Part shown: piece by piece, positions 5,180 through 34,851 of the stretch
How the letters are laid out: every line of letters begins with the position of its first letter
Position numbering within the stretch: the stretch's first letter is position 1
Source: Jiangellales bacterium
GTDB lineage: Bacteria > Actinomycetota > Actinomycetes > Jiangellales > Jiangellaceae
Assembly: GCA_942491665.1 (NCBI GenBank)
Contig: CALOBR010000015.1
Coordinates: 7,908-71,907 of the forward strand
Reading direction: 5' to 3'
Length of the DNA stretch: 64,000 nucleotides
The notes under the pieces: model-generated
What the model was told of the DNA's origin: nothing
Databases searched by the model: none
Seen by the model: only the letters and a program-made list of their open reading frames with translations
Made by a program: the position numbers and the translations under genes

Positions 5180-5194
5180 CACCCGGTTCGGGTG
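5180..5194 (+). promoter_or_regulatory. YACCC-N5-GGGTG palindrome, site a (CACCCGGTTCGGGTG)
   Basis: Lies in the divergent intergenic region between 3849..5075(-) and 5258..6754(+), 64 nt upstream of ATG 5258. Confidence 0.4.
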
Positions 5195-5257
5195 GTGTGC
5201 TTGGCAGGTCTGAGCGCCAGTGTCGGTGACAACGGTTGTTCGGCAAAGGAGCCCAGG

Positions 5258-6754
5258 ATGAGCAAGCCCACGATGATCACCCAGCAGCCGGTGATGACGA
5301 TGACGACCCCGATCCCGCAGAACCGCACCACACCGGACTCGGTCGAGACGTCGATCGGAACGCTCGAGTTCTTCGACGGCGTCCCCATCGGCGACACCAA
5401 GGACAGACTGGTCGATTTCGTCGCACGCGGTCGAGCCGTCGAGGCCTTCCTCAACATGACCCCAGCGGCATCGATGTACTCGCTTCGACAAGGCCATCGG
5501 GACCTGGGGCTGACCGAGTGCAACCAGATCCTGATCGCCGAACAGCTCGGCGACTCCAAGCCGCTCGTCCTCACCTGGAACAACACGTCGCTGTACACGT
5601 GGGGCTTCCTCGACCTCGAGAAGGACGGCCCGACGGTCATCGAGATCCCGCCCGACGTGCTGGGCATTCTCGACGACATGTACTTCCGCTACATCAGCGA
5701 CATGGGAGCCGCCGGCCCCGATCACGGCAGGGGCGGCAAGTACCTGGTACTCCCGCCCGACCACGACGGCGACGTGCCGGAGGGGTACTACGTGGTCAGA
5801 TCGCGGACGTACTGCGTCTGGAACTTCATGCGTGGGTACGTGCGGGGCAACGTCCACGACCCCGCGAACGTCAAGAAGGCAGCGGACAACATCAAGCGGA
5901 ACCTCAAGGTATACCCGCTGTCGGAGAAGGCCGATCCACCTGCGATGCAGTTCACGAACATGTCGGGCCTGGCGGGCTACAACACGATCATGCCCAATGA
6001 CGTCAGCTTCTTCGACGTCGTCGACCAGATCGTGCAGGAGGAGGCCGATGGCTGGCTCGACCCTGAGCTGGCGGGACAGCTTCGCGCGATCGGGATCATG
6101 AAGGGCCAGAAGTTCGACCCCGACGAACGGATGACGAGGATCCTCACCGAAGCGGTGGCGATCGGCAACGGGTACGCACGCGTCAACACGGTGTATCCGC
6201 AGGACGAGGGGTCATACGTCTACCACGACGTGCACACCGAGTGGGTCATGGCGTACCCCGACAAAGACACGACGTTCTTGCAGCAAGGCGCCCGCCGCAT
6301 GGATGGCCGCCTCTGGATGCACTACAACGCGGTGTGCGTGACACCGGCGATGGCCGTGACGAAGCCGGGCGTCGGGTCGGACTACATGATCACAGGCCTC
6401 GACGCCGAGGGTCGACCGCTGGACGGGGCGAAGACCTACAAGCTCCACCTGCCACCGAACGTTCCGGTCAAGGACAACTGGTCGGTGACCATCTACGACC
6501 CGCAGACCCGGAGCATGCTGCAGACCGACCAGACGTTCGCCGGAATCAACAGCTTGAGCGCCGATCAGAGGCAGAACGACGACGGTTCCATCGATGTCGT
6601 TCTTGGTCCTGAACCGCCGGCTGGCATGGAGAAGAACTGGATCCAGACGATCCCCGGCAAGAGCTGGTTCATACTCCTGCGCGCCTACGGGCCACTGGAG
6701 CCCTGGATCGACAAGACCTGGCGGCCGCGCGAGCTCGAGGAGGTGGAGGGGTGA
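5258..6754 (+). CDS. DUF1254/DUF1214 domain protein, paralog 2
   Basis: ATG 5258 follows AAAGGAG. The N-terminus (TTPIPQNRTTPDSVETSIGTLEFFDGVP) is nearly the same as in the 10181..11638 product. Confidence 0.85.
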   Translation: MSKPTMITQQPVMTMTTPIPQNRTTPDSVETSIGTLEFFDGVPIGDTKDRLVDFVARGRAVEAFLNMTPAASMYSLRQGHRDLGLTECNQILIAEQLGDSKPLVLTWNNTSLYTWGFLDLEKDGPTVIEIPPDVLGILDDMYFRYISDMGAAGPDHGRGGKYLVLPPDHDGDVPEGYYVVRSRTYCVWNFMRGYVRGNVHDPANVKKAADNIKRNLKVYPLSEKADPPAMQFTNMSGLAGYNTIMPNDVSFFDVVDQIVQEEADGWLDPELAGQLRAIGIMKGQKFDPDERMTRILTEAVAIGNGYARVNTVYPQDEGSYVYHDVHTEWVMAYPDKDTTFLQQGARRMDGRLWMHYNAVCVTPAMAVTKPGVGSDYMITGLDAEGRPLDGAKTYKLHLPPNVPVKDNWSVTIYDPQTRSMLQTDQTFAGINSLSADQRQNDDGSIDVVLGPEPPAGMEKNWIQTIPGKSWFILLRAYGPLEPWIDKTWRPRELEEVEG

Positions 6755-6849
6755 GCTGAGGAACCGCCTGAGTGGACCGGTTCACAGGGTCCCATCAGAT
6801 GGACGTGCACGTCACGGAAGAAGGTTCAGTCGGTCGAGAAGGGGACATC

Positions 6850-7620
6850 ATGAGTAGTGATACCGCAGATCAGGGAGTTGCGGGCGTCGGCATGCTCCTC
6901 GCGAACTACACCAGCAAGGAAGGCGCGGCATCGACCTACGAGAGCCTGAAGCGCGCTATGGATGCCGGCCAGTTCTACTACGAGGACGCCGCTGTTGTGA
7001 GCCGCGATGTCGATGGCACGGTGAGCATCACCGAACACGGCGACATGAGCACGGGCAAGGGCGCTGGGATCGGCGCACTGATCGGCGGCGTGATCGGAAT
7101 CCTGGGTGGCCCAGCCGGCATCGCGATCGGTGCCGGCGCAGGCGCCGCGATCGGCGGGGTCGCTGCACATTCCGATGCCGGCTTCAACAACGAGACGCTG
7201 GAAAGGATCGGCGGCGCGCTGCCCAACAACACGTCGGCGCTGGCGGTCACAACCAGCAAGGACTTCGTTGAAGCGGTGCGCAGCCAATCCACTGATGATG
7301 AAACGGTCATGATGGCTCAGGACATCGCCGATGTGATCACCAGCAACCTGAACGCCGGCCAGGACGTGTTGCTGGCACTAGTGCTGACCGAGAACGGGGT
7401 GGCTGCCACCAGAGTGGCTGCCAGCGACGATGCGGTTGGCGTATTCGGAATGGTGGCAACCGACGAGGGCGCAGCCGCTCGCGCAGTGGTTGCGACCGAT
7501 GAGGGCGTAGCTGCGGCCGAAGCGGCAGCAACCGCCGCCGCGGACGACTCGACATCACCCCCCGCGGCCGACGACTCGGCATCCAGTGGAGACTCCGAGA
7601 GCAGGGACGGCCAGGCCTGA
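6850..7620 (+). CDS. DUF1269-like glycine-zipper membrane protein, paralog 1
   Basis: ATG 6850 follows GAAGGGGA. Soluble N-domain, then a Gly/Ala-zipper TM stretch (GAGIGALIGGVIGILGGPAGIAIGAGAGAAIGG). Same architecture as 24876..25409 and 34942..35463. Confidence 0.65.
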   Translation: MSSDTADQGVAGVGMLLANYTSKEGAASTYESLKRAMDAGQFYYEDAAVVSRDVDGTVSITEHGDMSTGKGAGIGALIGGVIGILGGPAGIAIGAGAGAAIGGVAAHSDAGFNNETLERIGGALPNNTSALAVTTSKDFVEAVRSQSTDDETVMMAQDIADVITSNLNAGQDVLLALVLTENGVAATRVAASDDAVGVFGMVATDEGAAARAVVATDEGVAAAEAAATAAADDSTSPPAADDSASSGDSESRDGQA

Positions 7621-7889
7621 GGAGCTGAGCTGGGCGACCTGCGCGCTCGGAACGCGGTACGGACACCGTTTCGACCGACCACACGACGCGCGCAGGTCGC
7701 CAGATCGAGGACTACCAGATCAGCCCCAAGCCCAGCGCTGCACGATGCGGCCGAGGTTCAGGGACCCACCCAACTGACGAGGGGGTCCGATGGACGTCCT
7801 GAGCACCGTTGTGAGTATGTCCGGCCTCGTCTTCGTCCTTGCCCTCCTCGTGAACATCGTCGCCGTTCCGGCGGTGGCGTGGGGGTCTG

Positions 7890-9125
7890 ATGAGGGTGAT
7901 CACTATGGAGGATTGGGCGGAGATCCGCCGGTTGCACCAGTCGGAGCGGTTGTCGGGGCAGGCGATCGCCAAGCAGTTGGGGATCTCGAGGAACACGGTC
8001 GCGGCGGCGTTGGCCTCGTCAGGGCCGCCGGAGTACGAGCGTGCCGCGGTCGGGTCGGTGATCGACAGCTTGGAGCCGGAGATCCGGCGATTGTTGGAGG
8101 CGACGCCCTCGATGCCGGCGACGGTGATCGCTGAGCGGGTGGGCTGGGACCGGGGCATGAGCGTGTTCACCGCGCGGGTGCGCGAGTTGCGCCCGTTCTA
8201 CTTGCCGCCGGACCCGCCCTCGCGCACGACCTATCTGCCGGGTGAGCGGATGCAGTGCGACTTGTGGTTCCCGCCGGCGGACATCCCGCTGGGCCATGGG
8301 CAGGTCGATTCCCCGCCGGTGCTGGTGCTGACCGCGGGGTACTCGCGGGTGCTCGACGCGGTGATGATCCCGACCCGGACCGCGGAGGATCTGATCGCCG
8401 GGCACTGGCTGCTGCTCAACCGGTTCGGGGTGGTCCCTCGGGAGCTGGTCTGGGACCAGGAGGACGCGGTCGGGGCCTGGCGCCGGGGCAAGCCGGTCCT
8501 CACGCAGGAGTTCGAGGCGTTCCGCGGAATGCTGGGCACCTCGGTGCGGTCGTGTCGGGCGCGCCGCCCGCAGGCCAAGGGCCTGGTCGAGCGGAACAAC
8601 GGTTGCTACGAGACGTCGTTCCTACCCGGGCGGGTGTTCACCTCCCCGGCGGACTTCAACACCCAGATCAGCGCGTGGATCGAGTCCCGGGCCGACGTGC
8701 GTCACCATCGGGTGTTGGGCTGCCAGCCGATCACCCGGTGGGCGACCGACAAGGCCGCGATGCTGCCGCTGCCTCCGGTCGCCCCGGCGCTGGGTTGGCG
8801 GCACTCGGTGCGCATGCCCCGGGACCACTACGTGCGCATCGATGCCAACGACTACTCGGTCGACCCGCGGGTGATCGGCCGATGGGTCGAGGTGATCGCC
8901 GACCTGGACCGGGTTGCGGTGACCTGCGCCGGGCAGTCGGTCGTCGACCACCCACGCTGCTGGGCCGCGCACCAGAGCATCACCGATCCCGCCCATGCCG
9001 CCGCCGCGGTCGCGTTGCGGGCGGCGGGTCGCCAGGCCCGGCCGCTGGAGGATCCGCATCAGGTCGAGGTCCGTGACCTCAGCTCCTATGACCAGGTGTT
9101 CGGCCTGGACGGGGAGGTGGCCTGA
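7890..9125 (+). CDS. istA: IS21-family transposase IstA
   Basis: 411 aa with an N-terminal HTH (EDWAEIRRLH-...SGQAIAKQLGISRNTV) and a DDE-type core typical of IstA. Its stop overlaps the istB start (ATGA-type junction). Confidence 0.9.
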   Translation: MRVITMEDWAEIRRLHQSERLSGQAIAKQLGISRNTVAAALASSGPPEYERAAVGSVIDSLEPEIRRLLEATPSMPATVIAERVGWDRGMSVFTARVRELRPFYLPPDPPSRTTYLPGERMQCDLWFPPADIPLGHGQVDSPPVLVLTAGYSRVLDAVMIPTRTAEDLIAGHWLLLNRFGVVPRELVWDQEDAVGAWRRGKPVLTQEFEAFRGMLGTSVRSCRARRPQAKGLVERNNGCYETSFLPGRVFTSPADFNTQISAWIESRADVRHHRVLGCQPITRWATDKAAMLPLPPVAPALGWRHSVRMPRDHYVRIDANDYSVDPRVIGRWVEVIADLDRVAVTCAGQSVVDHPRCWAAHQSITDPAHAAAAVALRAAGRQARPLEDPHQVEVRDLSSYDQVFGLDGEVA

Positions 9126-9947
9126 TGCCCACCTCCAGGAACACCCGAGACTTCGGTGCCGAGATCGCCTACCTGACCCGCGCGTTGAAGGCCCCCACCC
9201 TGCGCGAGTCGGTGGACCGCCTCGTCGAGCGGGCCACCGCGGAGTCGTGGTCGTATCCAGAGTTCCTGGCCGCCTGCCTGCAGCGCGAGGTCTCCGCGCG
9301 GGAGTCCCACGGCGGCGAGGGTCGGATCCGCGCGGCCCGGTTCCCTGCCCGCAAGAGCCTCGAGGAGTTCGACGACGACCACGCCCGCGGACTCAAGCGG
9401 GAGTCGATCGCCCACCTGGGCACCCTGGACTTCGTCACCGCGAAGGACAACATCGTGTTCCTCGGCCCGCCCGGGACCGGGGAAGACGCACCTGGCCACC
9501 GGGTTGGCGATCCGGGCCTGCCAGCCCGGACACCGGGTGCTGTTCAACACCGCAGCCCAATGGGTCACCCTGCTCGCCGACGCCCACCACGACGGACGGC
9601 TGCAAGCCGAGCTCACCCGGCTGGGTCGCTACCCCGCTGATCGTCGTCGACCTATGCGGATATCGGCATAGGTTGATGAGGTCGGCTACATCCCGTTCGA
9701 ACCCGAGGCCGCGAACCTGTCCTTCCAATTCGTCTCATCCCGCTACGAACGGGCCTCCCTGATCGTCACGAGCAACAAGCCGTTCGGGATCGCTGGGGCG
9801 AGGTATTCGGCGACGACGTCGTGGCCGCAGCCATGATCGACCGGCTTGTCCACCACGCCGAAGTCATCGCCCTCAAAGGCGACAGCTACCGACTCCGCAA
9901 CCGAGACCTCGGCGGCCGACCACCAGCCGCCACCACTGACCAAGACT
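9125..9947 (+). pseudogene. istB: IS21 helper ATPase IstB, disrupted by several indels
   Basis: The Walker A motif reads GPPGTGEDAPG instead of GPPGTGKTHLA because of an extra G near 9480. Further 1-2 nt indels lie near 9630 and 9790, and a 26-nt insertion at about 9652-9677 splits VVD|EVGYIPF. The C-terminus (MIDRLVHHAEVIALKGDSYRL) survives in another frame. Confidence 0.8.
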
Positions 9948-10131
9948 GACCAACAACAACCGAGGCAGGTGGCTCAGTCTTCGACCGCATGAAGTGGCTC
10001 AAATTTCAGCCGCAGTTGACACAGGCGTCGATTCCTAGAGCCATGGATGCCGGCGGGTCATCACCCAAGACGGGTACGAACGATCGTTTCGAAGATGAGT
10101 TGCACCTCGACCGCAGCCTGTGTGACAGATC

Positions 10132-11638: not shown

Positions 11639-11732
11639 GGATATCTCCTCTCGAGGCGCGAGTCGCAGATTCGCTCACGCCGTGGGCGTGCTTGGACTCA
11701 CTCATACTGCGTCCCAACGCCGGCTTGGACAC

Positions 11733-11747
11733 CACCCGAATCGGGTA
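11733..11747 (-). promoter_or_regulatory. YACCC-N5-GGGTG palindrome, site b (minus strand TACCCGATTCGGGTG)
   Basis: 95 nt upstream of the start at 11638. The flank GGGTGGTGTCC resembles site a (GGGTGGTGTGC). Confidence 0.4.
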
Positions 11748-12256: not shown

Positions 12257-12374
12257 GTAGCGGCACATCGGGGCCTCGGTGGGCGGCCCAGCGAGAGTGG
12301 CTGGATCGAGGCGGGTGCCGGTGAGGCTCTGATCACCCTGGAGCGGTGCACGGAGGGCCTCGCGCTGACCGAAG
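12257..12374 (+). pseudogene. internal fragment of a LuxR/LAL-regulator paralog
   Basis: Translates to VAAHRGLGGRPSESGWIEAGAGEALITLERCTEGLALTE. This matches IAHRQGD...GRKSETGFVEAAAGEALIAVERYTEGLALTED of the intact regulator, encoded near 14130-14270. Confidence 0.6.
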
Positions 12375-12610: not shown

Positions 12611-15358
12611 GTGGAGTGCCCAACGGAGAAGGCGCGGCCGCGCAGAGGGGGCTTCGTGACCGAGTCGGGCCGTGTGGTCGTGGCTGCGAAGCTGCGCCCG
12701 CCGAGCGTGCCCGGCAACGCTGCTCGTAGGGATCGACTGCACCATCTGCTGGACTCTGTCTTCCACTTCCCCGTGACGTCGGTGACGGCCCCGGCAGGCT
12801 TCGGGAAGTCGTGGTTGGTGGCGTCGTGGCTGAGGGAACACCCCGGGACCCCTCAGGCCTGGGTAACGTTGGACCGGCTCGACGCGGACCCGGTCCGCTT
12901 CTGGTCCCACGTTCTCCAAGCCACGGCACAGTCAACCCTCCCCGATGCCGGGCGCGAAGCGCTCCGTGTGATGGACGCCGCGGATGCGGCGTGGCCGCTG
13001 ATCGTCGACTCGCTCGCGGCGGGACTTGCTGCCCGTCGTGAACACTTCATTCTCGTGCTGGACGAGTCGCAGCGACTTGCCGGGGACGAAGTACTCGCCT
13101 CTCTGACGCAGTTTCTGAGCCAGCTTCCTTCCAACGCTCACGTCATGCTGGTCGGACGGCATGACCCGTCGCTGATGCTGGCCCGGTGGCGCCTGGTCAA
13201 CGAGCTGCTTGAGATTCGCACCCTCGACATGCGGTGCACGCAGCAAGAGAGCGTCGACGTGGTCACGACCTCCTTGGGCCTCGACCTCCCATACGAGGCC
13301 ATCGACGAGGTTCGCGAACGAACCATGGGGTGGATAACCGGCATACGTCTTGCCTCGTCTGCCGCCGCACGACGTGATGACGTCGTGGCTGCGGCGAGAC
13401 AGCTGTCCCCGGTGGGCGCTGTCGCCGGCGCCTATGACGCTTTGGGTGACTATCTCGTCGAGGAAGTGCTGGGCGAGATGGACGGCGAGCTGAGCGACTT
13501 CCTGCTGGACACGTGTGTGCTGACCGAGCTGAATCCGCCGCTGTGCGACGCGGTGTCCCGTCGCCGTGACAGCGCCGAGCGGCTGGATCACCTTGCCCGG
13601 ACCGGCATGTTCACCAGCCGCCTCGAGGGGGTCAATCCGCACTACCGATACGACGACATGTTTCGCGACGCGCTGACCACGCTGCTCTACCGGGGTGGCC
13701 CACAGCGCCCCGCCAGGTCGCACCGCCGAGCAGCCGAGTGGCTGAGTCACGACGGCCAGCTGGTCGACGCGGTCGAGCACGCCGTCAGCGCCAACGACTC
13801 TCGCCTCGCCCAACGGATCCTGGTCGAAGCCACCTCTCCGCTGCTCGCCGCCCGACAGATCGACACTCTGGTCGCCTTGTTCGAGGACGTCGATGCTCTC
13901 GGAGCCGAGCTGGCTCCATCCACCCTGATGTCGTGGGCGGGTGCGGCGCTTTACAGCTCGCGGCCAGCAACCGACATCGATCGCCTGCTTGAGAGGACCA
14001 GGCGCCGGCTCGCGTCCTTGACTCCCGACGAAGAAGCCGAGGCTGCCCGCGACCTGATGGTTAGCGCCGAGCCCTTCCATGAATCGGTCCATGAGTTCCG
14101 GGTCACAGTCGACGCCACCATCGCGCACCGTCAGGGGGACCTCGACCTGGCCCTCGCCGGGCCGAAGCAGTTGAACGGCCGCAAGAGCGAGACGGGGTTC
14201 GTCGAAGCGGCCGCAGGTGAGGCGCTCATCGCCGTCGAGCGCTACACCGAGGGGCTCGCCCTGACCGAAGACTGGCAGCGCTACTGCAACGTGGCCGCAA
14301 ACGACACCATGGGCGTGACCAACCTCGCCCACTGCCTGTCGATCGCTGCGCTCGCCCGCGTGGGCCAAGGCCATCTGGTCGAAGCCGACCAACTCGCCAA
14401 CCGGGCGGTGGAGGCCCTGCGCATGCGGGGTCTGACAGACCGTCCCCAGTACGCCGTAGCAGCGCTACCTACCGGGTGGGTGGCCTGGGAACGCGGTGAC
14501 CTCGCCGCCGCAGGAGGTGTGGGCCGCATGGTCCTGCGCCCTATCAGGCAACTGGGTGAGATACCGGCAGAGGTCTCCGTTCGGATGCTGCTGGCCAGAA
14601 CGTACTGGTCAGCGGGGAACCGGGAAGCCGCCGAGGTTGAGCTCGACAAGTCACTGGCCGTAGGGGGCTCCGGGCCCGTCAGCCGGCACTTGGCCGAGCG
14701 CGTCGCTCTGGAACGTACCCGGTTCGCCCTGCTGTCCGGCGATGTCGCGGGAGCGCAGCTCGCGCTCCCTGATTGGCAAGTCCGAGTGTCAGCCGGCGCC
14801 GCGACCATGCGCGAGTATCTGCTCCTGCACCGGATGCTCCTAGAGATCGACGGTGACGCCGGCCGCCTGGAGGATCTCGCCCTGCCACCGGAGGCAGACG
14901 TGGCCGCCAGCCATCGCATCGAGATTCACAAGCTGGCCGCTCTCGCCGCGCTCGCTCGCCATGACGAGACCCTGGCACTGGATGAGCTGACCGCCGCGAT
15001 GGCCATCGCCGCCCACACCGGCCACCGACAGACGTTCCTCGACGAGCAGTCCGCTTTCGGGGTGCTCCTCGACAACGCGGCAGCGCGAGGCGGCTTGGTG
15101 CTGCGACCCGTGGGCCTGACCGCGCCGGACACGAGCACTCAGGAGCCTGTCGCGGCGCTGGTGGAGCCCCTCACCGAACGCGAGCTGCAGGTGCTCCGGC
15201 TGCTGCCGAGCCACTACTCCTACCGCCAGATCGCAGAGCACCTCTTCGTCTCCCCCAACACCGTCAAGTCGTATGTGAAGTCTGTGTACCGCAAGCTCGA
15301 CGCCGAACGACGCAGCGATGCCGTTGACAAGGCCCGCGCGCTCGGCCTGGTCACCTAG
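12611..15358 (+). CDS. large ATP-binding LuxR-family (LAL/MalT-like) transcriptional regulator 1
   Basis: About 900 aa. N-terminal P-loop-like APAGFGKSWL, a long helical repeat region, and a C-terminal LuxR HTH (LTERELQVLRLL...SPNTVKSYVKSVYRKLD). The start is uncertain; GTG near 12656 is also possible. Confidence 0.85.
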   Translation: MECPTEKARPRRGGFVTESGRVVVAAKLRPPSVPGNAARRDRLHHLLDSVFHFPVTSVTAPAGFGKSWLVASWLREHPGTPQAWVTLDRLDADPVRFWSHVLQATAQSTLPDAGREALRVMDAADAAWPLIVDSLAAGLAARREHFILVLDESQRLAGDEVLASLTQFLSQLPSNAHVMLVGRHDPSLMLARWRLVNELLEIRTLDMRCTQQESVDVVTTSLGLDLPYEAIDEVRERTMGWITGIRLASSAAARRDDVVAAARQLSPVGAVAGAYDALGDYLVEEVLGEMDGELSDFLLDTCVLTELNPPLCDAVSRRRDSAERLDHLARTGMFTSRLEGVNPHYRYDDMFRDALTTLLYRGGPQRPARSHRRAAEWLSHDGQLVDAVEHAVSANDSRLAQRILVEATSPLLAARQIDTLVALFEDVDALGAELAPSTLMSWAGAALYSSRPATDIDRLLERTRRRLASLTPDEEAEAARDLMVSAEPFHESVHEFRVTVDATIAHRQGDLDLALAGPKQLNGRKSETGFVEAAAGEALIAVERYTEGLALTEDWQRYCNVAANDTMGVTNLAHCLSIAALARVGQGHLVEADQLANRAVEALRMRGLTDRPQYAVAALPTGWVAWERGDLAAAGGVGRMVLRPIRQLGEIPAEVSVRMLLARTYWSAGNREAAEVELDKSLAVGGSGPVSRHLAERVALERTRFALLSGDVAGAQLALPDWQVRVSAGAATMREYLLLHRMLLEIDGDAGRLEDLALPPEADVAASHRIEIHKLAALAALARHDETLALDELTAAMAIAAHTGHRQTFLDEQSAFGVLLDNAAARGGLVLRPVGLTAPDTSTQEPVAALVEPLTERELQVLRLLPSHYSYRQIAEHLFVSPNTVKSYVKSVYRKLDAERRSDAVDKARALGLVT

Positions 15359-15436: not shown

Positions 15437-15451
15437 CACCCCATTCGGGTG
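15437..15451 (+). promoter_or_regulatory. YACCC-N5-GGGTG palindrome, site c (CACCCCATTCGGGTG)
   Basis: 78 nt upstream of ATG 15529. Confidence 0.4.
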
Positions 15452-19215: not shown

Positions 19216-19228
19216 GGTGGCCGCGGAC

Positions 19229-19243
19229 TACCCGAATCGGGTG
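19229..19243 (+). promoter_or_regulatory. YACCC-N5-GGGTG palindrome, site d (TACCCGAATCGGGTG, then AGGCC)
   Basis: Lies between the AI-2E remnant and the membrane-protein ORF that can start at GTG 19271. Confidence 0.35.
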
Positions 19244-20100: not shown

Positions 20101-20180
20101 CCCGCGTCTACCGATGCCGAGCCCGCCGATGCCGAGTCCGCAGAGGACCGATCGACCTAGCGGGCGACAAGGCAGATATC

Positions 20181-20195
20181 ACCCCCTGAGGGGGA
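20181..20195 (+). promoter_or_regulatory. YACCC-N5-GGGTG-like palindrome, site f (CACCCCCTGAGGGGG, then AGGCC)
   Basis: 78 nt upstream of ATG 20273. Its presence argues that 20273..20680 is its own transcription unit. Confidence 0.35.
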
Positions 20196-24318: not shown

Positions 24319-24333
24319 CACCCGACGGGGGTG
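24319..24333 (+). promoter_or_regulatory. YACCC-N5-GGGTG palindrome, site k (CACCCGACGGGGGTG)
   Basis: 86 nt upstream of ATG 24419. Confidence 0.4.
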
Positions 24334-24754: not shown

Positions 24755-24875
24755 CCGGCCACCATGCGGGGCACGTGCATCTGTCGACCAGGCCGTCGGG
24801 CTCTCTCCGCGCAGTGCTGTGTCACCAGTCAACCGGATTCTCACTGAGGCCGGACCAGCCATTGAGGGAGTAGAG

Positions 24876-25409: not shown

Positions 25410-25514
25410 GCGCCAGCAACCCGTTCGCGGCCGCTGGGCCGACCAAGCTCGGCGGCCCGGGCCGTCCGGTGGGCCCAGTCGGCCAGTTGACTGTCGAGCG
25501 TTGGGAGATCAGTT

Positions 25515-27254: not shown

Positions 27255-27321
27255 CTCTGATGACGAAAGGCGACCCCTGCCGAGTCGGTGGCGCCCGACC
27301 GGCTGCTCCTGAGGCTGTGCC

Positions 27322-28185: not shown

Positions 28186-28249
28186 GTGCTGTTCTTCGGG
28201 GCCGCCAGTGTGTGACCAGACTGTCCCGAGCCCGGAAGGGGGTGCGGTT

Positions 28250-29545: not shown

Positions 29546-29664
29546 TCGTCAACTCCCTTCATGCCGAGGGCACTGCCGAGCACAGGGTCGTGGACTCGTG
29601 CTCCTTTTCCGTTGGCCTGGCCGGGTGTTGACCCTGAACTCCGACGTGGCGGGTCTGGGCACCT

Positions 29665-29679
29665 CACCCGCTACGGGTA
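29665..29679. promoter_or_regulatory. YACCC-N5-GGGTG palindrome, site h (CACCCGCTACGGGTA)
   Basis: 101 nt upstream of ATG 29780. The flanking bases fit the oriented consensus better on the minus strand. Confidence 0.35.
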
Positions 29680-29779
29680 GTCCGGCCTTGGCCGTGCCGG
29701 TCTAGCCTCGGTCGATGAAAGGTCCGTGAACTCGTCACGGGGCCGTCACGACACCTGGACGTAGGTCTGGAGGGCTTTC

Positions 29780-32551
29780 ATGAGTACCGCTAGCAACGCA
29801 ACTGGCACTCCCGATCAGGTTGAGTGGTACGCGAGGTCAGCACAGGACACGGCTGCGGCGGTGGGTGTGGACCCCAGCACCGGTCTCAGCGCCTCAGAGG
29901 CAGCCGCGCGCTTGGCAAAGAGCGGGCCGAACGCACTCCCCGCCGAGGATCCGCCGCCACCATGGACGCTCTTCCTGGCCCAGTACAAGTCCTACATGCA
30001 GATCATCCTCGTGGGCGCGGCGGTCGCCTCGATCCTGATCGGCCAGGTCTCCACGGGCGTCATCGTCTTGGCGATCACGGCGCTCAACGCCGTCGGCGGG
30101 CTGCGGCAGCAGGGCAAGGCCGAGAGTGCGATGAACGCACTCCAGTCGATGCTCAAGACCTCGGCTCGCGTCCGTCGGGACGGTTCGGAGAAGAAGATCG
30201 ACGCCGACCAGGTCGTTGTCGGCGATGTGGTGCTGCTCGCCGCTGGTGACGACGTGTGCGCCGACGGCCGACTCATCGACGCCACCTCACTGCAGATCGA
30301 CGAGTCCGCTCTGACCGGTGAGAGCGTCCCCGCGTCGAAGAGCGCCGACACAGTCACCGCCTCGAATCCGGTGCTCGGCGATCAGTCCGACATGGCCTTC
30401 ATGAACACGCCGGTCACGCACGGCAGCGGCGTGATGGTCGTGACCGCCACCGGTGGCGACACCGCGGTAGGGGGCATCTCGGGGATGCTCAAGTCGGCCC
30501 CGAACGTCAAGACTCCGCTGACCAAGCAGCTGGACTCGCTGACGCTGTGGATCGCTGGCGCCGCCGGGCTGACGATTGTGATCATGTTCGCCCTCGGGAT
30601 CTCCCGCGGCGAGGAGACGCAGGTCATCTTCACCACCGCCATCGCGCTCGCCCTGGCCGCGGTGCCGATGGCGATGCCCACGGTGCTTCAGGTGATCCTG
30701 TCGACAGGATCGACCAAGCTCGCCGCGCAAGGCGCGGTCGTCAAGAGCCTCGACTCGGTCGAGACGCTGGGGTCGACATCGGCCATCAACTCCGACAAGA
30801 CCGGGACGCTGACGATGAACGAGGTCACGGTCGTTCAAGTCATTGATCCCACCGACCGGTTCTCGATCACGGGCATGGGGTACGGGCTTGACGGAGAGGT
30901 GCACCACACCGCGGGAAACACGAACACGATCGAGGAGTCGATCCTGCCGTTCGTGATCTGCAACGACGCCAAGCTGGTCGACGGCAAGGTGGTCGGCGAC
31001 CCAACCGAGGGCGCCTTCCTGGTCATGGGGCACAAGGCGAAGCTCGACATCGAGGGCACGCAAGCGGCCTTCCCGCGGCTGGCCACCCTGCCCTTCGATC
31101 CGACGTACAAGCTGATGGCTGTGTTCTGCCAGGCCACCGACGAGGCCGGGAACGCTGTGGTGCGCGTATTCGTCAAGGGGGCCGCCCCAGCAGTGATCGC
31201 CAAGGCGTCGACAGCGCTGGCCAACGGGGAGAGCGTGCCGTGGACCGATCAACAGGACGAGAGGTCGACGAAGGAGCAGAAGGCGCTGGCTGCCAAGGGC
31301 CTGCGGGTCATGGCGGCGGCCATCAAGGATCTGGACCCCGCTCAGTTCGATCCGGATGGCGACCTGCTCTCCTTGATCGAGGACCTGCAGATGACCGCCA
31401 TGGTCGGGATGATCGACCCTCCACGGAAGGAGTCAGCGGGTGCGGTGAAGGCCGCGCAGGCGGCCAACATCCGTGTACGGATGGTGACCGGCGACGACGT
31501 GCTCACCGGTGCCGCCGTGGCCAAGCAGGTGGGGATACCAGGAGAGGCAATTCTGGGCACTGACTTGGCGGCAATGTCGGAGGAGGAGCGCCTGGCACGA
31601 ATCGATGACATCGGTGTGGTGGGACGCGTGGCGCCTGAGCACAAGGTGCTGATGGTTGAGACGCTTCGAAAGAAGGGTGACGTGGTCGCCATGACCGGCG
31701 ACGGTGTCAACGACGCCCCTGCCATCAAGACGGCCGACATCGGCATCGCGATGGGTTCGGGAACCCAGGTCGCGAAGAACGCGGGTCGCATGATCCTGAC
31801 CGACGACAACTTCGCCACCATCGTGCTGGCCGTGTCCGAGGGACGCAAGATCTACGACAACATGCTCAAGTACATCCGGTTCATGCTTGTTGCGCTGGTC
31901 ACGTATGTCGTGACGTTCTTGATCGCCAATGTGCTCAACATCGCTGGGGGACAACCATTCTCCGCGACTCAGATCCTGTGGATCAACTTCCTGATCACTG
32001 CCCCTATTGGCATCGCCCTGGGTCTGGACAAGGAGACTCCTGGGCTGATGAAGCGCATGCCCAGGCCGAGGGCAGCCTCGATCATGACGCCGGACATGCT
32101 GACCACCGTGGGCCTGGTTGGCCTGTTCATGTCCGTCACCATCAACCTGCTGATCGTCTTCGGGGAGAACGAGTACGACGCGGTCGAGACCGGAAGCAGC
32201 ATGGGCCTGGTCGCCTTCTCGTTGATGCTTGTGGTCGCTGCCTTCGAGAGCCGCGACTCCAAGGCCACAGCTCTGCGCACGGAGACCTTTGACAACAAGA
32301 CCCTGAACATCACCGCCCTGGTCGAGATTCTCCTAGCCGTCCTGATCACCAGGGGTGACGCACTGACCGACCTGCTCGGTACGGTCGCCCTTACCGACAC
32401 TCAGTGGCTCATCGGTGCCCTCCCAGCGCTCGTCCTGTTTGTGGGTTGGGAGATCGGCAAGCTCATCGCCCGTTCGCGAGGTGGCGCTGGGGCCGAGGCC
32501 CCGGACTCTGTGGCGCCAGTCGCCAAGGTCCCGGTCTCTGCCGGGTCCTGA
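29780..32551 (+). CDS. cation-translocating P-type ATPase (P2-like, Ca2+/Mg2+ type)
   Basis: 923 aa with TGES, DKTGTLT and TGDGVNDAPA motifs and 10 predicted TM helices. Confidence 0.9.
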   Translation: MSTASNATGTPDQVEWYARSAQDTAAAVGVDPSTGLSASEAAARLAKSGPNALPAEDPPPPWTLFLAQYKSYMQIILVGAAVASILIGQVSTGVIVLAITALNAVGGLRQQGKAESAMNALQSMLKTSARVRRDGSEKKIDADQVVVGDVVLLAAGDDVCADGRLIDATSLQIDESALTGESVPASKSADTVTASNPVLGDQSDMAFMNTPVTHGSGVMVVTATGGDTAVGGISGMLKSAPNVKTPLTKQLDSLTLWIAGAAGLTIVIMFALGISRGEETQVIFTTAIALALAAVPMAMPTVLQVILSTGSTKLAAQGAVVKSLDSVETLGSTSAINSDKTGTLTMNEVTVVQVIDPTDRFSITGMGYGLDGEVHHTAGNTNTIEESILPFVICNDAKLVDGKVVGDPTEGAFLVMGHKAKLDIEGTQAAFPRLATLPFDPTYKLMAVFCQATDEAGNAVVRVFVKGAAPAVIAKASTALANGESVPWTDQQDERSTKEQKALAAKGLRVMAAAIKDLDPAQFDPDGDLLSLIEDLQMTAMVGMIDPPRKESAGAVKAAQAANIRVRMVTGDDVLTGAAVAKQVGIPGEAILGTDLAAMSEEERLARIDDIGVVGRVAPEHKVLMVETLRKKGDVVAMTGDGVNDAPAIKTADIGIAMGSGTQVAKNAGRMILTDDNFATIVLAVSEGRKIYDNMLKYIRFMLVALVTYVVTFLIANVLNIAGGQPFSATQILWINFLITAPIGIALGLDKETPGLMKRMPRPRAASIMTPDMLTTVGLVGLFMSVTINLLIVFGENEYDAVETGSSMGLVAFSLMLVVAAFESRDSKATALRTETFDNKTLNITALVEILLAVLITRGDALTDLLGTVALTDTQWLIGALPALVLFVGWEIGKLIARSRGGAGAEAPDSVAPVAKVPVSAGS

Positions 32552-32572
32552 GTGCCCGGCGACGTCGCGCTG

Positions 32573-33154
32573 CTAGTCCTCCCTGCGGTGAGTGCGGCGG
32601 AGGGCGTTGTTGACGCGTGCAATCGAGGCGCGGAGCATGTCGGCCCGAGCGGCTTGGACTGGGTTGGCGTGTCGGCGCGCGATGTCGGCCAGCCGCACCT
32701 CGGGGTCGATGACCTCACCGGAAGGTGCTGAGTGCATGTCGGAGTACGCCAATGCGTCGGCCAGCAAGGAGTCCTCTCGCGCAAACTGGTCCTCGAGGTC
32801 GTGTACTCCGTTCTGCGGGGCGGTGAGCACTGCCCAGGAGTGATGTGCCACCAAACGGGGCAGCCGCTCCGGGTAGCCCTCGGAACGAAGAAACAGCGCC
32901 CCGTCCAAAGGGTGGAATCCCGTCCGGACGACGCGTGCGGAGTAGCCGATGTCATGCAGGGTTGCGGCAGCGACCAGTAGTTCAGCCTCGTCGGGGTCGA
33001 ACAGATGCGCCAGGCCCGCCGCGACCGACCCAGCTGTCAGCACGTGCACCCACCGAGTGCCGTGGTCGTGAAGCAGGTCGTGCGCCAGAGCCTGCGCGTC
33101 CTCCCGAGTGGGGCCGAGCGGATCCGAGGGATCCCCGGAGACCAGCTTGGACAT
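32573..33154 (-). CDS. HD-domain phosphohydrolase
   Basis: ATG 33154 is preceded by GAGGAGGAG. HD signature ATLHDIGYS and HHSWAV. Confidence 0.75.
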   Translation of the reverse strand: MSKLVSGDPSDPLGPTREDAQALAHDLLHDHGTRWVHVLTAGSVAAGLAHLFDPDEAELLVAAATLHDIGYSARVVRTGFHPLDGALFLRSEGYPERLPRLVAHHSWAVLTAPQNGVHDLEDQFAREDSLLADALAYSDMHSAPSGEVIDPEVRLADIARRHANPVQAARADMLRASIARVNNALRRTHRRED

Positions 33155-33221
33155 CACTCCTCCTCTCGATGGCCGCCCAACGCTCACAGTCGATGCTCTC
33201 CGCCCTGCCGCCGCGCCGCCT

Positions 33222-33236
33222 CACCCATGACGGGTA
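33222..33236 (-). promoter_or_regulatory. YACCC-N5-GGGTG palindrome, site i (minus strand TACCCGTCATGGGTG, then AGGCGG)
   Basis: 68 nt upstream of the HD gene start at 33154. Confidence 0.4.
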
Positions 33237-33282
33237 GTGCGTGCACACGGGCTGAGCACGGCGGGGCCGGGCCCAGTTGAAC

Positions 33283-33297
33283 TACCCGGTAGGAGTG
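33283..33297 (+). promoter_or_regulatory. YACCC-N5-GGGTG-like site j (TACCCGGTAGGAGTG, then AGGCGG)
   Basis: 56 nt upstream of ATG 33354. This is the second site in the same divergent intergenic region. Confidence 0.35.
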
Positions 33298-33353
33298 AGG
33301 CGGATCCGATGTCCCGGCCGCATCCTTGAGAGACCTGACCCGAGGAGACCCTG

Positions 33354-33611
33354 ATGCTTGAACGGTGCTACGAGGTCTCCGTGCGTGGGGTCATCCCCGA
33401 GGAGTTGCTCGACGAGGTGCGGTCTGGCCTCATCGAGGTTCAAGCCATGACGATTCTCATCGGTCGTGTGCGTGACCAGGCCGAGTTGCAGGGGGTGCTG
33501 CGCCGCGTACACAGCCTCGGCTTGGAGCTGCTCGAGGTGCGCCAAGTTGCCGATGCTTCCGGAGGCAGAACACCGGACCCGGCATCAACCCGGGCCCACG
33601 ACAGTGATTGA
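33354..33611 (+). CDS. small conserved-looking hypothetical protein
   Basis: 85 aa, with GAGGAG RBS 6-7 nt before the ATG. No family recognised. Confidence 0.5.
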   Translation: MLERCYEVSVRGVIPEELLDEVRSGLIEVQAMTILIGRVRDQAELQGVLRRVHSLGLELLEVRQVADASGGRTPDPASTRAHDSD

Positions 33612-33960
33612 CATCGAGGTCGTGGTGGCCGGCGCGGTGGGTGACCTCGCCCGGTCGATGCTGCAGCAGCTCTCCGGCTATGAGCAGTCCACGCGAGTGG
33701 TCGTGTGCAGCAGGCGTGCCCTGGGGGACCTGCTTGCCGGGCTGGACGAAGCCCGCCTCGACGTAGAACGTGTCACGGCGCTCACCGTGTCTCCCGAAGA
33801 ACCACCCGCTCGGGGTGAGGCGCAGACAACCAGCTCACTGAAGCATGAGAACGGCGAACCGTCGCGACGTGTCCTCGACAAATCGATGCCCGACAACTCA
33901 GGAGGATCCAACCATGGCCAAGGGCAAGAAGGCGAAGACGTCGAAGTCCAAGCAGGGTAA
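33604..33960 (+). CDS. second small hypothetical protein, possibly a paralog of 33354..33611; 3' end doubtful
   Basis: GTG 33604 overlaps the upstream stop. The first roughly 65 aa repeat the pattern of the upstream protein. The ORF then runs through motif site m and into ppk2, so the true end is unclear. Confidence 0.3.
   Translation: MIDIEVVVAGAVGDLARSMLQQLSGYEQSTRVVVCSRRALGDLLAGLDEARLDVERVTALTVSPEEPPARGEAQTTSSLKHENGEPSRRVLDKSMPDNSGGSNHGQGQEGEDVEVQAG
33803..33817 (+). promoter_or_regulatory. YACCC-N5-GGGTG palindrome, site m (CACCCGCTCGGGGTG, then AGGCG)
   Basis: 97 nt upstream of the ppk2 ATG at 33914. Confidence 0.4.
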
Positions 33961-34783
33961 GAAGCACGACGCCCCCGCCGATGCCGATGTCACCACGGGC
34001 GGTCCCCCCGCGAAGATGAAGACGAAGGACTACGAGCGCGAGATGCGCCGGCTGCAGGGTGAGCTGGTTGCCATGCAGGAATGGGTCGTCGGCACCGGGG
34101 GGAAGATCTGCGTCGTCTTCGAGGGGCTGGACTCCGCCGGCAAGGGCGGGACCATCAGGCGGATCACCGAGCGAACGAGTCCGCGGGTGTTCAAGCACAT
34201 CGCCCTGCCGACGCCGAGCGCGCGTGAGAAGTCTCAGATGTATGTGCAGCGCTACATGGCCCACTTCCCGTCAGCTGGGGAGGTCGCGATCTTCGATCGC
34301 AGCTGGTACAACCGCGCCGGAGTCGAACCAGTCATGGGCTACTGCACCCAGGAACAGACCGACAAGTTCTTGAGGATGGTGCCTGCGGTCGAGAAGGCGA
34401 TGGTCGAGTCCGGAATCATCCTGGTTAAGTACTGGCTCAACGTGAGCGTGGACGAGCAAACGCGTCGGCTGTCCAACCGGATCGACGATCCCCGCAAGGT
34501 GTGGAAGCTCTCCCCGACCGACTTGAAGTCGTACAGCCGGCACTACAAGTACTGCCAGGCCCGTGATGCGATGCTTGCCGCAACGGACACTTCATGGGCG
34601 CCGTGGTTCGTCGCGGACAACAACGACAAGAAGCGTGGGCGACTCAACATCATCAGCCATCTGCTCACCCAGGTGCCCTACGCACCGCTGCCGCCCTCGG
34701 ACGTGGCCATGCCCAAGCGCCCGACCCCCCGCGGGTACGTCGAGCCCGGCATGCCGCTGCACCGCGTGCCGGCGCTGTTCTGA
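33914..34783 (+). CDS. ppk2: polyphosphate kinase 2 (PPK2 family)
   Basis: ATG 33914 follows AGGAGGA. Walker-A-like GLDSAGKGG, FDRSWYNR, and a lid region typical of PPK2. Confidence 0.9.
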   Translation: MAKGKKAKTSKSKQGKKHDAPADADVTTGGPPAKMKTKDYEREMRRLQGELVAMQEWVVGTGGKICVVFEGLDSAGKGGTIRRITERTSPRVFKHIALPTPSAREKSQMYVQRYMAHFPSAGEVAIFDRSWYNRAGVEPVMGYCTQEQTDKFLRMVPAVEKAMVESGIILVKYWLNVSVDEQTRRLSNRIDDPRKVWKLSPTDLKSYSRHYKYCQARDAMLAATDTSWAPWFVADNNDKKRGRLNIISHLLTQVPYAPLPPSDVAMPKRPTPRGYVEPGMPLHRVPALF

Positions 34784-34836
34784 GCCGGCGGCTCGCGGCG
34801 GTCTCTGCGGGAGGTGCATGAAAGCAGGTCGTTGAC

Positions 34837-34851
34837 CACCCGTTGAGGGTG
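34837..34851 (+). promoter_or_regulatory. YACCC-N5-GGGTG palindrome, site e (CACCCGTTGAGGGTG, then AGGTGG)
   Basis: 91 nt upstream of ATG 34942. Confidence 0.4.

Follow-up and report, generated by a model that had tools for sequence, protein, structure and literature searches.

MalT-type regulons and related operators

The closest known system to the one described here is the MalT (ACSP50_3915) regulon of Actinoplanes sp. SE50/110, described as a large region of the genome regulated by maltose (Droste et al. 2020, PMC7567727). At 17 promoters with a mapped start site, its operator TCATCC-N5-GGATGA overlaps the -35 region, at a distance of 34.4 +/- 1.0 nt from the start; deletion of malT lowered 42 of 51 genes and overexpression raised 39, and the contact between MalT and DNA was deduced from genetics and not from footprinting (PMC7567727). 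The region encodes two MalT-like proteins together with DUF1269, SHOCT, AI-2E, diacylglycerol kinase and metallophosphoesterase proteins, and the regions of relatives add DUF2252 and ppk2 (PMC7567727). The E. coli-type MalT box borders on the -35 region, and the promoters concerned have no -35 element (PMC7567727). MalT boxes of E. coli and Klebsiella read GGGGA(T/G)GAGG with the core GGA(T/G)GA; in E. coli they are decamers without symmetry that mostly occur as direct repeats and stand in front of maltodextrin genes.

DosR/DevR and NarL are dimeric GerE helix-turn-helix (HTH) proteins that bind G-rich inverted repeats, and the primary DosR site overlaps the -35 region. In the 7-2-7 sites of NarL the TACCC and GGGTA pentamers are separated by 6 nt and not by 5. 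Operators of CsoR/RicR (TACCC-N5-GGGTA type) are repressor sites without a fixed position near -43.

A recurrent palindrome in one half of the window

An exact search for YACCCNNNNNGGGTR in the window (the whole stretch of 64,000 nt that was analysed) returned 11 matches where 0.32 were expected, and none of 100 dinucleotide shuffles reached 11, so that the recurrent palindrome described in an earlier note on this DNA is real. The element, YACCC-N5-GGGTR, is a 15-base palindrome in front of about a dozen genes. Ten of the 11 exact matches are intergenic in a window that is about 85% coding (P = 7e-8), and all ten lie within the first 35 kb. Nine of the eleven sites listed in the earlier note were recovered as exact (5180, 11733, 15437, 19229, 24319, 29665, 33222, 33803 and 34837) and two are degenerate: the site given as 20181 begins at 20180, and the one at 33283 carries one mismatch. 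Two exact matches, at 10062 and 42767, had been overlooked. The putative operators, with their candidate -10 hexamers and the genes they face, are as follows.

5180..5194, both directions: CACCCGGTTCGGGTG, exact; divergent DUF2254 (-) and DUF1254/DUF1214 (+) genes; -10 CAGTGT 5218-5223 (+) and GAGTCT 5151-5156 (-), both at 23 nt
10062..10076, minus: TACCCGTCTTGGGTG, exact, intergenic, adjoining an IS21 insertion; imperfect -10, CTAGGA/TAGGAA, 10033-10038; downstream nothing but a weak small ORF, 9743-9973 (-)
11733..11747, minus: TACCCGATTCGGGTG, exact; second DUF1254/DUF1214 gene, 10181-11638 (-); -10 CAGTAT 11704-11709 (-); RBS-preceded ATG 94 nt past the motif end
12334..12348, plus: CACCCTGGAGCGGTG, weak candidate, one core mismatch; upstream of LAL1; AAGGAT at spacing 23
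15437..15451, plus: CACCCCATTCGGGTG, exact; DUF2252, 15529-16893; -10 CACGAT 15475-15480; start codon 77 nt past the motif end
19229..19243, plus: TACCCGAATCGGGTG(AGG), exact; unannotated membrane-protein gene (about 19343-20150), a coding frame with high GC3; -10 CACCGT 19267-19272
20180..20194, plus: CACCCCCTGAGGGGG(AGG), degenerate; DUF7144-holin-ABC1 genes; -10 GATGCT 20218-20223; RBS-preceded ATG 78 nt past the motif end
24319..24333, plus: CACCCGACGGGGGTG, exact; CMD-family gene (24419-24754) and DUF1269; -10 TAGCCT 24357-24362
29665..29679, plus: CACCCGCTACGGGTA, exact; type II P-type cation ATPase (29780-32551); -10 TAGCCT 29703-29708
33222..33236, minus: TACCCGTCATGGGTG(AGG), exact; HD-domain gene (-); -10 GAGCAT 33193-33198 (-); ATG 67 nt past the motif end
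33283..33297, plus: TACCCGGTAGGAGTG(AGG), one mismatch; small protein gene (about 33355-33612); -10 CATCCT 33321-33326
33803..33817, plus: CACCCGCTCGGGGTG(AGG), exact; ppk2; -10 AAGCAT 33841-33846
34837..34851, plus: CACCCGTTGAGGGTG(AGG), exact; DUF1269, probably co-transcribed with LAL2; -10 TATGGT 34875-34880
42767: match inside a SARP/AfsR-like gene

The match at 42767 is the only one in the 'accessory' half, where none had been reported; it has a -10 hexamer in neither direction and is judged a chance match. Site 10062 was possibly orphaned by the IS21 insertion. Site 12334 might serve autoregulation of LAL1 and is kept as tentative, since about 5.7 chance matches per window are expected at one core mismatch. 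On account of its A/T-rich centre and missing AGG flank, site 5180 was placed in a 'class 1', and site 11733 has the same type of centre. Pfam searches confirmed the genes named earlier as served by the palindrome (DUF2254, DUF1254/DUF1214, DUF2252, DUF7144, CMD, P-type ATPase, HD, PPK2 and DUF1269), as well as the two LAL genes.

Promoter layout

In 12 of the 13 gene-oriented sites the 15-mer is followed, at exactly 23 nt, by a -10 hexamer of the form xANNNT (P about 1e-18; A in alignment column 40, T in column 44), and in relatives this distance is 23 or 24 nt (52 oriented sites, all loci). No TTGACA-like -35 element is conserved upstream of the -10 at gene-oriented window sites. Given the fixed distance of 23 nt, the palindrome would span roughly -50 to -36, with its centre near -43; such a position without a -35 is the layout of an activator-dependent promoter. 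With start sites placed from the -10 hexamer, the 3' end of the 17-mer (the palindrome with its outer bases) would lie about 34-36 nt from the start site. RBS-preceded start codons follow the end of the motif by 63-104 nt, close to the 55-100 nt given before.

The sites are also oriented. On the promoter-proximal side, 46 of the 52 oriented sites of all loci have G as the outer base; the next positions are A (39 sites), K and G (39 sites), which agrees with the proposed AGG side facing the gene. On the distal side the outer base is split between C (29 sites) and T (23 sites).

Two MalT-like regulators in the same region

The region encodes two MalT-like proteins:

12611..15358, plus: LAL1, MalT-like STAND regulator with AAA/NOD, MalT-like TPR and GerE HTH
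35536..38220, plus: LAL2, MalT-like STAND regulator, the widespread paralogue

Pfam domains are GerE, TPR_MalT and AAA_22 in LAL1 and GerE and AAA_22 in LAL2, whose homologues carry WHD_MalT, TPR_MalT and GerE. As in E. coli MalT, a GerE HTH stands at the C-terminus, and the N-terminal 400 aa of the LALs match the MalT structure 8BOB at the level of 1e-32 (4e-32 for the N-terminal 400 aa of LAL1, 3e-33 for LAL2). The LAL1 gene is flanked by sites 11733 and 15437.

Conservation in relatives

The motif is kept upstream of ppk2 in five related genomes (L001, L002, L003, L011 and L018), whose ppk2 genes are 77-83% identical and whose flanks have diverged. Motif density was 18 matches in 1.51 Mb of ppk2 loci versus 38 in 195 kb around LAL orthologues, and on unrelated contigs the orthologues of LAL1 and LAL2 alike have palindromes clustered about them. 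A LAL gene with a site a few hundred bases away was found in 10 of 11 non-redundant loci (LAL2-type: L036, L082-L087, L091; LAL1-type: L089, L090); in the eleventh, L088 (LAL1-type), some 1.9 kb separate the LAL gene from the closest good site. The motif is present in all three LAL1 orthologue loci (L088-L090), and a site adjoins the gene in 9 of 9 LAL2-type loci examined. L081, a 96% relative of the window, also has an adjoining site and is not independent.

Individual sites are retained as well. Site 29665 is found in L081 at 3089, and site 33283 is there exact (TACCCGATAGGGGTG), with an 85-aa gene called downstream. The counterpart of site 20180 in L036 lies at 10052 and precedes holin-ABC1, and the DUF1269-LAL2 pair with the motif between or before the genes is kept in L081, L082 and L083. 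L001-L003 have the ppk2 site and no LAL within 10 kb; the L003 contig encodes a 43% LAL2 homologue elsewhere, with its own site. In Chloroflexia loci LAL, P-type ATPase and ppk2 genes occur together and the palindrome is absent. The co-localisation of motif and regulator genes favours a LAL as the binder and is circumstantial.

Comparison with the described systems

As in Actinoplanes, a palindromic 6-5-6 operator overlaps the -35 region, with its 3' end about 34-35 nt from the start site (here placed by prediction); many promoters are gathered in a single island, which comprises about 40-50 genes and includes two MalT-like LuxR genes; and relatives show a rearranged gene order. Shared families are DUF1269 (three copies), SHOCT, AI-2E transporter, diacylglycerol kinase and metallophosphoesterase and, in relatives, DUF2252 and ppk2. 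The half-sites TCACCC/GGGTGA differ from TCATCC/GGATGA by one base each. Unlike that of Actinoplanes, a member of the Micromonosporaceae, the island of this uncultured Actinomycetota lineage has no glucosidase, amylase or arginine-deiminase genes and encodes SulP, ClC, P-type ATPase, DUF1254/DUF1214 and DUF2254 proteins. The earlier note's proposal of a common operator for the two LALs is supported by this match in geometry and promoter position with a genetically validated operator, and by the fixed, class-II-like position of the palindrome 23 nt upstream of the -10.

The proximal half-site with its flank, GGGTGAGG, is about one base off the MalT box GGATGAGG or GGGGATGAGG, whereas E. coli boxes are mostly repeated directly and here there is a single inverted repeat; no maltodextrin genes are found in the window island. 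The TACCC half-site resembles the NarL heptamer, as had been suggested, and the likeness holds at the family level of GerE-type HTH sites and goes no closer. DosR half-sites (GGGAC...GTCCC) are oriented oppositely, and DosR and NarL are phosphorylated receiver proteins whereas the window LALs are STAND ATPases. To CsoR/RicR operators the core is nearly identical on paper, but here the outer bases prefer C/G and carry an oriented AGG flank.

Alternative explanations

The binder could also be a different dimeric regulator, of the GerE type or not, whose gene lies elsewhere in the genome. Were it a response regulator of the NarL/DosR family, the LAL genes would be mere targets; GerE dimers of this kind bind similar G-rich inverted repeats near -43, and the motif alone cannot tell these families apart. 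We consider this unlikely, as no such response regulator was found in the island, none recurs beside the motif in the gene tables of L081-L091 while a MalT-like LAL occurs in each, and the malT deletion in Actinoplanes shows the homologous motif class to be under the control of a LAL (PMC7567727).

An operator for a metal- or persulfide-sensing repressor of the CsoR/RcnR family (DUF156) appears very improbable. The family's known sites look like TACCC-N5-GGGTA, the sole literature match to TACCCNNNNNGGGTA is a CsoR operator from Bradyrhizobium, and a P-type ATPase is among the targets. This ATPase, however, is a type II cation pump (Cation_ATPase_N, Cation_ATPase_C) in which copper-type domains were not found. 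No DUF156 gene occurs among the scanned window ORFs or the called genes of twelve gene-table loci, nor were copper genes found here, in contrast to CsoR/RicR systems. Placed rigidly from -50 to -36 in promoters that lack a -35 consensus, the motif suits an activator and not a repressor, and it tracks LAL orthologues.

Even less credible is the idea, raised earlier, that GGGTG is the -10 recognised by a stress sigma factor of the SigB/SigF type (consensus GGGTA) and the sites are alternative-sigma promoters. GGGTR does resemble the GGGTAT -10 of such factors and the gene set looks stress-related, but the distal ACCC, which a sigma factor does not need, is as invariant as GGGT, a GTTT-like -35 is absent 14-17 nt upstream, a separate xANNNT hexamer of the sigma-A type stands at a fixed 23 nt downstream, and two divergent promoters share one of the sites.

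An RNA hairpin that acts in 5' leaders on stability or regulation, or a short terminator after upstream genes, is equally hard to sustain: a G+C stem of 5-6 bp could form and several sites lie directly 3' of a stop codon, but the start site is predicted about 35 nt past the motif, which would leave it outside the transcript it controls, the sequence itself is kept beyond pairing (outer positions vary independently, C..A and T..G), and neither a T-run after the repeat nor an Rfam match at gathering score was found.

A proposed LAL regulon

We therefore regard it as quite probable that MalT-like LAL activators, two of which are encoded inside the island, use the palindrome as their operator; start sites, binding, activation over repression and the pairing of paralogues with sites are here inferred from sequence. 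Such an activator, a STAND ATPase with a C-terminal GerE/LuxR HTH, would bind (T)YACCC-N5-GGGTG(A), centred near -43, as a dimer of HTH domains, probably as part of an ATP- and ligand-induced oligomer. The GGGTGA half-site would abut or overlap the -35 slot, and the bound LAL would bring in RNA polymerase, with a sigma factor of the housekeeping type, at promoters in which the -10 (xANNNT) is recognisable and a -35 consensus is lacking. Some twelve promoters, of which one is bidirectional, would be turned on jointly, and with them roughly 25 genes whose products are membrane, ion-transport and phosphate-related proteins. LAL1 and LAL2 may use distinguishable operator subtypes. Experiments in Actinoplanes have already demonstrated a system of this kind, and the island described here, 38 kb of poorly understood membrane and stress genes, would most likely be under the control of LAL1 and LAL2.

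Palindrome sites and gene content of the window

Exact matches to YACCCNNNNNGGGTR were found 11 times in the 64-kb window, compared with 0.32 expected from dinucleotide shuffles, and none of 100 shuffles contained 11 or more. Ten of these exact sites are intergenic, though about 85% of the window is coding (P = 7e-8). The earlier note had listed 11 sites, nine of which are exact and correctly placed. At the remaining two a site is indeed present, but the one reported at 20181 lies at 20180 and is degenerate (CACCCCCTGAGGGGG), and the one at 33283 is likewise degenerate (TACCCGGTAGGAGTG). Two exact sites were absent from that list: 10062 (minus-oriented, intergenic) and 42767, which lies within a SARP/AfsR-like gene, has no -10 in either direction and was treated as a chance match. 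A relaxed scan (one core mismatch plus -10) added weak candidates at 12334, 21184 and 27272, which are only tentative since such a scan gives about 5.7 chance matches per window.

A gene map based on GC3 calling and Pfam agreed with the genes that had been assigned to the sites. The first ~38 kb of the window, here termed the island, contains paralogues of poorly characterised families (three DUF1254/DUF1214, two SulP, three DUF1269 and two DUF7144) along with genes for DUF2254, DUF2252, CMD, ClC, an ABC1 kinase, a four-TMS holin-like protein, a metallophosphoesterase, a diacylglycerol kinase, a type II P-type ATPase, an HD protein, PPK2 and SHOCT. The true start of ppk2 lies ~23 codons downstream of the annotated one. 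The island also encodes two LAL regulators of ~900 aa each:

12611-15358, plus strand, LAL1
35536-38220, plus strand, LAL2

Several structural features of the window were observed in addition. The segments 7854-9640 and 9743-10076 of the island comprise an IS21-type element, with istA (rve and Mu-transposase C-terminal domains) and a truncated istB, and the adjoining operator 10062. This operator has an imperfect -10 and is followed only by a 76-aa ORF without Pfam match, so that the insertion may have left its promoter without a gene. Positions 19133-20680 form a single stop-free frame that holds a membrane-protein gene (~19343-20150, high GC3) and a DUF7144 gene (from ~20273), with the 20180 operator and promoter placed where GC3 is low, between the two genes. 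Without a stop between the two genes, read-through or fusion, or loss of a stop, would be implied. At the left edge (1-3797) a DUF7144 gene cut by the window end, the third DUF1254/DUF1214 paralogue and the second SulP gene indicate that the island, and probably more operators too, reach past the window. The part at 38700-64000 has the appearance of accessory or mobile DNA, with the following features:

41100-44180, minus strand, SARP/AfsR-like regulator
47063-47497, minus strand, MazF toxin
50427-51179, tyrosine integrase
51588-51884, minus strand, nucleotidyltransferase
57147-57668, minus strand, MarR gene
59088-60368, minus strand, IS110 transposase
62502-62575, minus strand, tRNA (Rfam at gathering score)

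LAL regulators and conservation of the palindrome

On domain content, LAL1 and LAL2 are MalT-like STAND regulators with recognisable P-loop/winged-helix, TPR and GerE parts. Both have AAA_22 Pfam matches, WHD_MalT (PF25873) occurs on all close homologues, and the N-terminal ~400 aa of LAL2 and LAL1 match E. coli MalT (PDB 8BOB) in phmmer at 3e-33 and 4e-32, respectively. TPR_MalT was detected in LAL1 at 2.6e-11, under Pfam's curated cutoff, and is weak or absent in LAL2 itself; most homologues of LAL2 and of LAL1 have a precomputed PF17874 annotation. The C-terminal HTH matches GerE at 2e-14 and 8e-14 in the two proteins.

We compared loci, each with 10-kb flanks, of LAL2-type homologues (39-96% identity; L081-L087, L091, plus L036) and of LAL1 orthologues (44-56% identity; L088-L090). 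The non-redundant LAL loci contain 38 exact sites in 195 kb, ~20-fold over the background at ppk2 loci (18 matches in 1.51 Mb, many of them the conserved ppk2 sites themselves). A site lies at most a few hundred bases from the LAL gene in 10 of 11 non-redundant loci, the exception being L088, and the same holds for L081 (GCA_942492495.1), a contig outside this count whose LAL2 is 96% identical to that of the window. LAL-adjacent sites are usually situated either in a divergent intergenic region common to the LAL gene and a target (DUF1269, SulP operon, DUF6325) or just past the end of the LAL gene, where DUF7144, LOR or holin genes follow. Recurrent neighbours in these loci are DUF1269, SulP, DUF2252, DUF7144, AI-2E, ClC, FUSC_2, SHOCT, P-type ATPase, DUF2254, DUF1254/DUF1214 and ABC1. 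This comparative evidence, along with a genetically validated homologue in Actinoplanes, supports the reading favoured in the earlier note, namely that the palindrome would be an operator of the LAL regulators. Another GerE-type regulator, e.g. a response regulator, could in principle be the binder; this we regard as improbable, as no other GerE-type regulator recurs near the motif in the loci with gene tables (L081-L091). A LAL paper on SCO6993 (PMC9628970) offered no helpful consensus, and literature searches for regulons involving the DUF families gave nothing relevant.

The palindrome was also followed at ppk2 loci (L001-L080) from a species-representative collection that does not include the source genome, in which the nearest ppk2 relatives are uncultured Actinomycetota MAGs with up to 83% identity. 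It is kept upstream of ppk2 in L001, L002, L003, L011 and L018, where the neighbouring intergenic sequence has diverged; the distance to the start codon varies at ppk2-locus sites, and that to a -10-like hexamer is constant at 23-24 nt. Homologues of window genes are also preceded by isolated sites, e.g. DUF7144 of Fodinibacter luteus (L055), SulP of an Acidimicrobiales MAG (L075) and holin-ABC1 of a Jiangellales MAG (L036). In the cultured F. luteus there is one motif site, without a clean -10. The palindrome is absent from several Chloroflexia loci that have an adjacent LAL gene, and the regions ahead of the P-type ATPase gene in Chloroflexia and other loci with a linked LAL gene revealed no common palindrome.

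With regard to gene order, ppk2 directly adjoins a type II P-type ATPase gene (~80% identical to that of the window) in most Actinomycetota loci, e.g. L002 10001-13690, and many Chloroflexia MAGs have the two genes paired likewise, at ~45% identity. Frequent further neighbours are SulP, diacylglycerol kinase, DUF2252 and HD genes. One Chloroflexia MAG with a LAL gene nearby (L053) has a different palindrome, TGGGGAATGTCCCCA (GGGxx outward, DosR-type-like), upstream of the P-type ATPase at 7056-7070, a single occurrence. In L081, the closest relative, the metallophosphoesterase-diacylglycerol kinase pair found between SulP and the P-type ATPase in the window (27313-29545) is missing (L081 2432-2977), and an IS (DUF4096 plus DDE_Tnp_1) lies between the ATPase and HD genes (6049-6940). 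Since the LAL2 proteins are 96% identical, these differences indicate remodelling of the island on short time scales. Past LAL2, where the window has its accessory-type DNA, L081 continues with TrwC relaxase, VapBC and AEP primase instead. Small genes of 78-85 codons without Pfam match were repeatedly located directly downstream of an operator and may represent a conserved small-protein family of the regulon:

L081 7741-7998
L082 8580-8834
L083 7691-7942
L084 9602-9853
L085 9542-9778
window ~33355-33612

Predicted promoter architecture

Thirteen gene-oriented window sites were aligned, with 5180 counted in both directions. A was found at column 40 and T at column 44 in 12 of 13 each, forming an xANNNT -10 hexamer that starts exactly 23 nt past the last base of the 15-mer YACCC-N5-GGGTR, or 22 nt past the 17-mer (T)YACCC-N5-GGGTG(A). 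At the window frequencies of 16% for A and 16% for T, the probability of these columns by chance is ~1e-18. Among 52 oriented sites from all loci the hexamer stands at spacing 23 in 33 and at 24 in 19; the 17-mer-type motif itself counts 12 sites in the window and more than 40 in related loci. In the 13 aligned sites, no base is conserved beyond 3 nt upstream of the palindrome and no TTGACA-like hexamer is present in the -35 slot. That slot is occupied by a flank A-K-G-Y, which corresponds to the "AGG(C/T)G or GTGT" noticed previously after the second half-site. If the -10 is set at -12 to -7, about -50 to -36 is taken up by the palindrome, with its centre near -43 and the GGGTG half promoter-proximal, and the start site implied by the hexamer would lie ~34-36 nt from the 17-mer end. 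RBS-supported start codons follow the motif end by 63-104 nt, giving inferred leaders of 28-69 nt. Site 5180 has a -10 at the correct spacing on both strands and is therefore probably common to the divergent DUF2254 and DUF1254/DUF1214 genes. The layout fits an activator-dependent, class-II-like promoter.

This geometry bears on several other interpretations. A CsoR/RcnR-type operator has a near-identical core on paper and was rejected on the activator geometry, on the class of the ATPase (type II in the window, not a heavy-metal pump) and on the absence of DUF156 matches among the 50 window ORFs scanned and in the gene tables of L081-L091. The combination of a palindrome with a fixed -10 and no -35 argues both against a sigma-factor -10 and against a leader RNA hairpin. 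A GGGT-type -10 of a stress sigma factor, the alternative offered in the earlier note, was rejected in its SigB/SigF form, since the palindrome is symmetric, both half-sites are invariant, a conserved ANNNT follows 23 nt downstream, and window sites lack a GTTT-like -35 at 14-17 nt upstream of a GGGTA-type -10. A leader hairpin was dismissed because transcription is inferred to begin past the motif and sequence rather than pairing is conserved; at gathering score Rfam found only the tRNA in the window and nothing at the palindrome. The reported ECF56 sigma motif, CGATGAGTT-N14-GGTC (10.1101/2020.01.30.927608), is unrelated.

Comparison with the Actinoplanes MalT regulon

Judging from sequence and by analogy, the palindrome system would belong to the already known actinobacterial MalT-like LAL regulons. 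The nearest described system is the 51-gene "maltose-regulated large genomic region" of Actinoplanes sp. SE50/110, which has the MalT-like ACSP50_3915 as its activator (Droste et al. 2020, PMC7567727); malT deletion lowers 42 of the 51 genes and overexpression raises 39. The MEME motif 5'-TCATCC-5 nt-GGATGA-3' was found upstream of 17 experimentally mapped start sites. It overlaps the -35, its 3' end stands 34.4 +/- 1.0 nt away from the start, and the authors related it to the E. coli MalT box GGGGA(T/G)GAGG. The region includes a second MalT-like gene (ACSP50_3917), three DUF1269 genes, SHOCT, an AI-2E transporter, diacylglycerol kinase and metallophosphoesterase. In relatives, where gene order is shuffled between species, DUF2252 and one or two ppk2 genes are present as well.

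The window element (T)CACCC-N5-GGGTG(A) has the same 6-5-6 geometry and differs from TCATCC/GGATGA by one base in each half; a hybrid of both types, CATCC-N5-GGGTG, is present in Cellulomonas biazotea (L091 at 4279). The promoter position would also be the same, as a distance of 22 nt between the 17-mer and the -10 implies a start ~34-36 nt from the 17-mer. Both systems are islands in which two MalT-like genes are embedded among motif-bearing genes, and a comparison of PMC7567727 (Tables S3/S4 and text) with the window Pfam matches gave at least seven common families, namely DUF1269, SHOCT, AI-2E, diacylglycerol kinase, metallophosphoesterase, DUF2252 and ppk2. New here are the variant half-site, a phyletic spread wider than reported for the Actinoplanes system and, plausibly, a paralogue-specific split of the operators into two subtypes.

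Two possible operator subtypes and proposed mechanism

The palindromes may be sorted into two classes:

class 1, A/T-rich spacer centre, no AGG flank: YACCCGAATCGGGTG
class 2, G+C-rich centre and AGG flank: TACCCGCTGCGGGTGAGG

LAL1-type and LAL2-type proteins form two clades whose HTH sequences differ (...LPSHLTYR.IA..VSPNTVKSY.K... and ...LPTMKSNAEIA..VSVNTVKAHLK..., respectively), with VSPNTVKSY and VSVNTVKAH as the recognition helices. At LAL1-type loci all 12 sites have at least two A/T in the central three bases and one of 12 has the AGG flank, whereas at LAL2-type loci such centres occur in 6 and the flank in 15 of 26 sites. Fisher tests gave P = 7e-6 for the centre and P = 0.005 for the flank, values that are optimistic because of phylogenetic dependence among the loci. 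All four window sites round LAL1 (5180, 11733, 15437, 19229) have class 1 centres, and the DUF2254, DUF1254/DUF1214 and DUF2252 genes are served by three of these; 15437 and 19229 carry the class 2 AGG/CCT flank too and are thus mixed. Sites 20180 to 34837 are class 2 in look. The two flanks distinguished in the earlier note, AGG(C/T)G and GTGT, match this split between class 2 and class 1.

LAL1-type sites may be of the form YACCCGAWWCGGGTR without an AGG flank, with DUF2254, DUF1254/DUF1214 and AI-2E as targets. LAL2-type sites may combine a G+C-rich centre with a GGGTGAGG flank and serve DUF1269, SulP, P-type ATPase, ppk2, DUF7144 and SHOCT. We tentatively propose, as a possibility somewhat short of an even chance, that the island consists of two interleaved sub-regulons of paralogous MalT-like activators, which have the core half-site in common and are distinguished by spacer and flank, jointly forming a maltose-independent regulon for stationary-phase or ion/phosphate homeostasis.

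The MalT-like LALs would bind the palindrome via a pair of GerE HTH domains, presumably after ATP- and ligand-driven oligomerisation, and from about -43 might recruit RNA polymerase to promoters without a -35. DUF1269 and LAL2 probably share one transcript from the promoter at 34837, and LAL2 would then be under positive autoregulation; the weak candidate site 12334 precedes LAL1. No maltose genes were found in the island and the Actinoplanes MalT does not act on maltose metabolism either, so the name "MalT" is uninformative on the signal.

Significance

Around 25 genes of unknown function, among them those for DUF1254/DUF1214, DUF2254, DUF2252, DUF1269, DUF7144, ppk2, SulP, ClC, P-type ATPase and ABC1 kinase, are joined here in one predicted co-regulated unit with a testable regulator and with exact promoter predictions (motif, -10 and inferred start). 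Cellulomonas biazotea (GCA_042434765.1; L091, with sites at 6626, 9476 and 9966) provides a cultured host with the same architecture, and LAL1 and LAL2 form a natural paralogue pair for studying operator discrimination by spacer or flank. Should the reading as two sub-regulons be true, the regulon would occur in Jiangellales, Dermatophilaceae, Cellulomonas, Fodinibacter and an Acidimicrobiales MAG, with the Actinoplanes "maltose-regulated region" as a local form. The finding itself indicates that the Actinoplanes MalT region is no Micromonosporaceae oddity and represents a regulon that recurs, with a one-base operator variant, in several Actinomycetota lineages.
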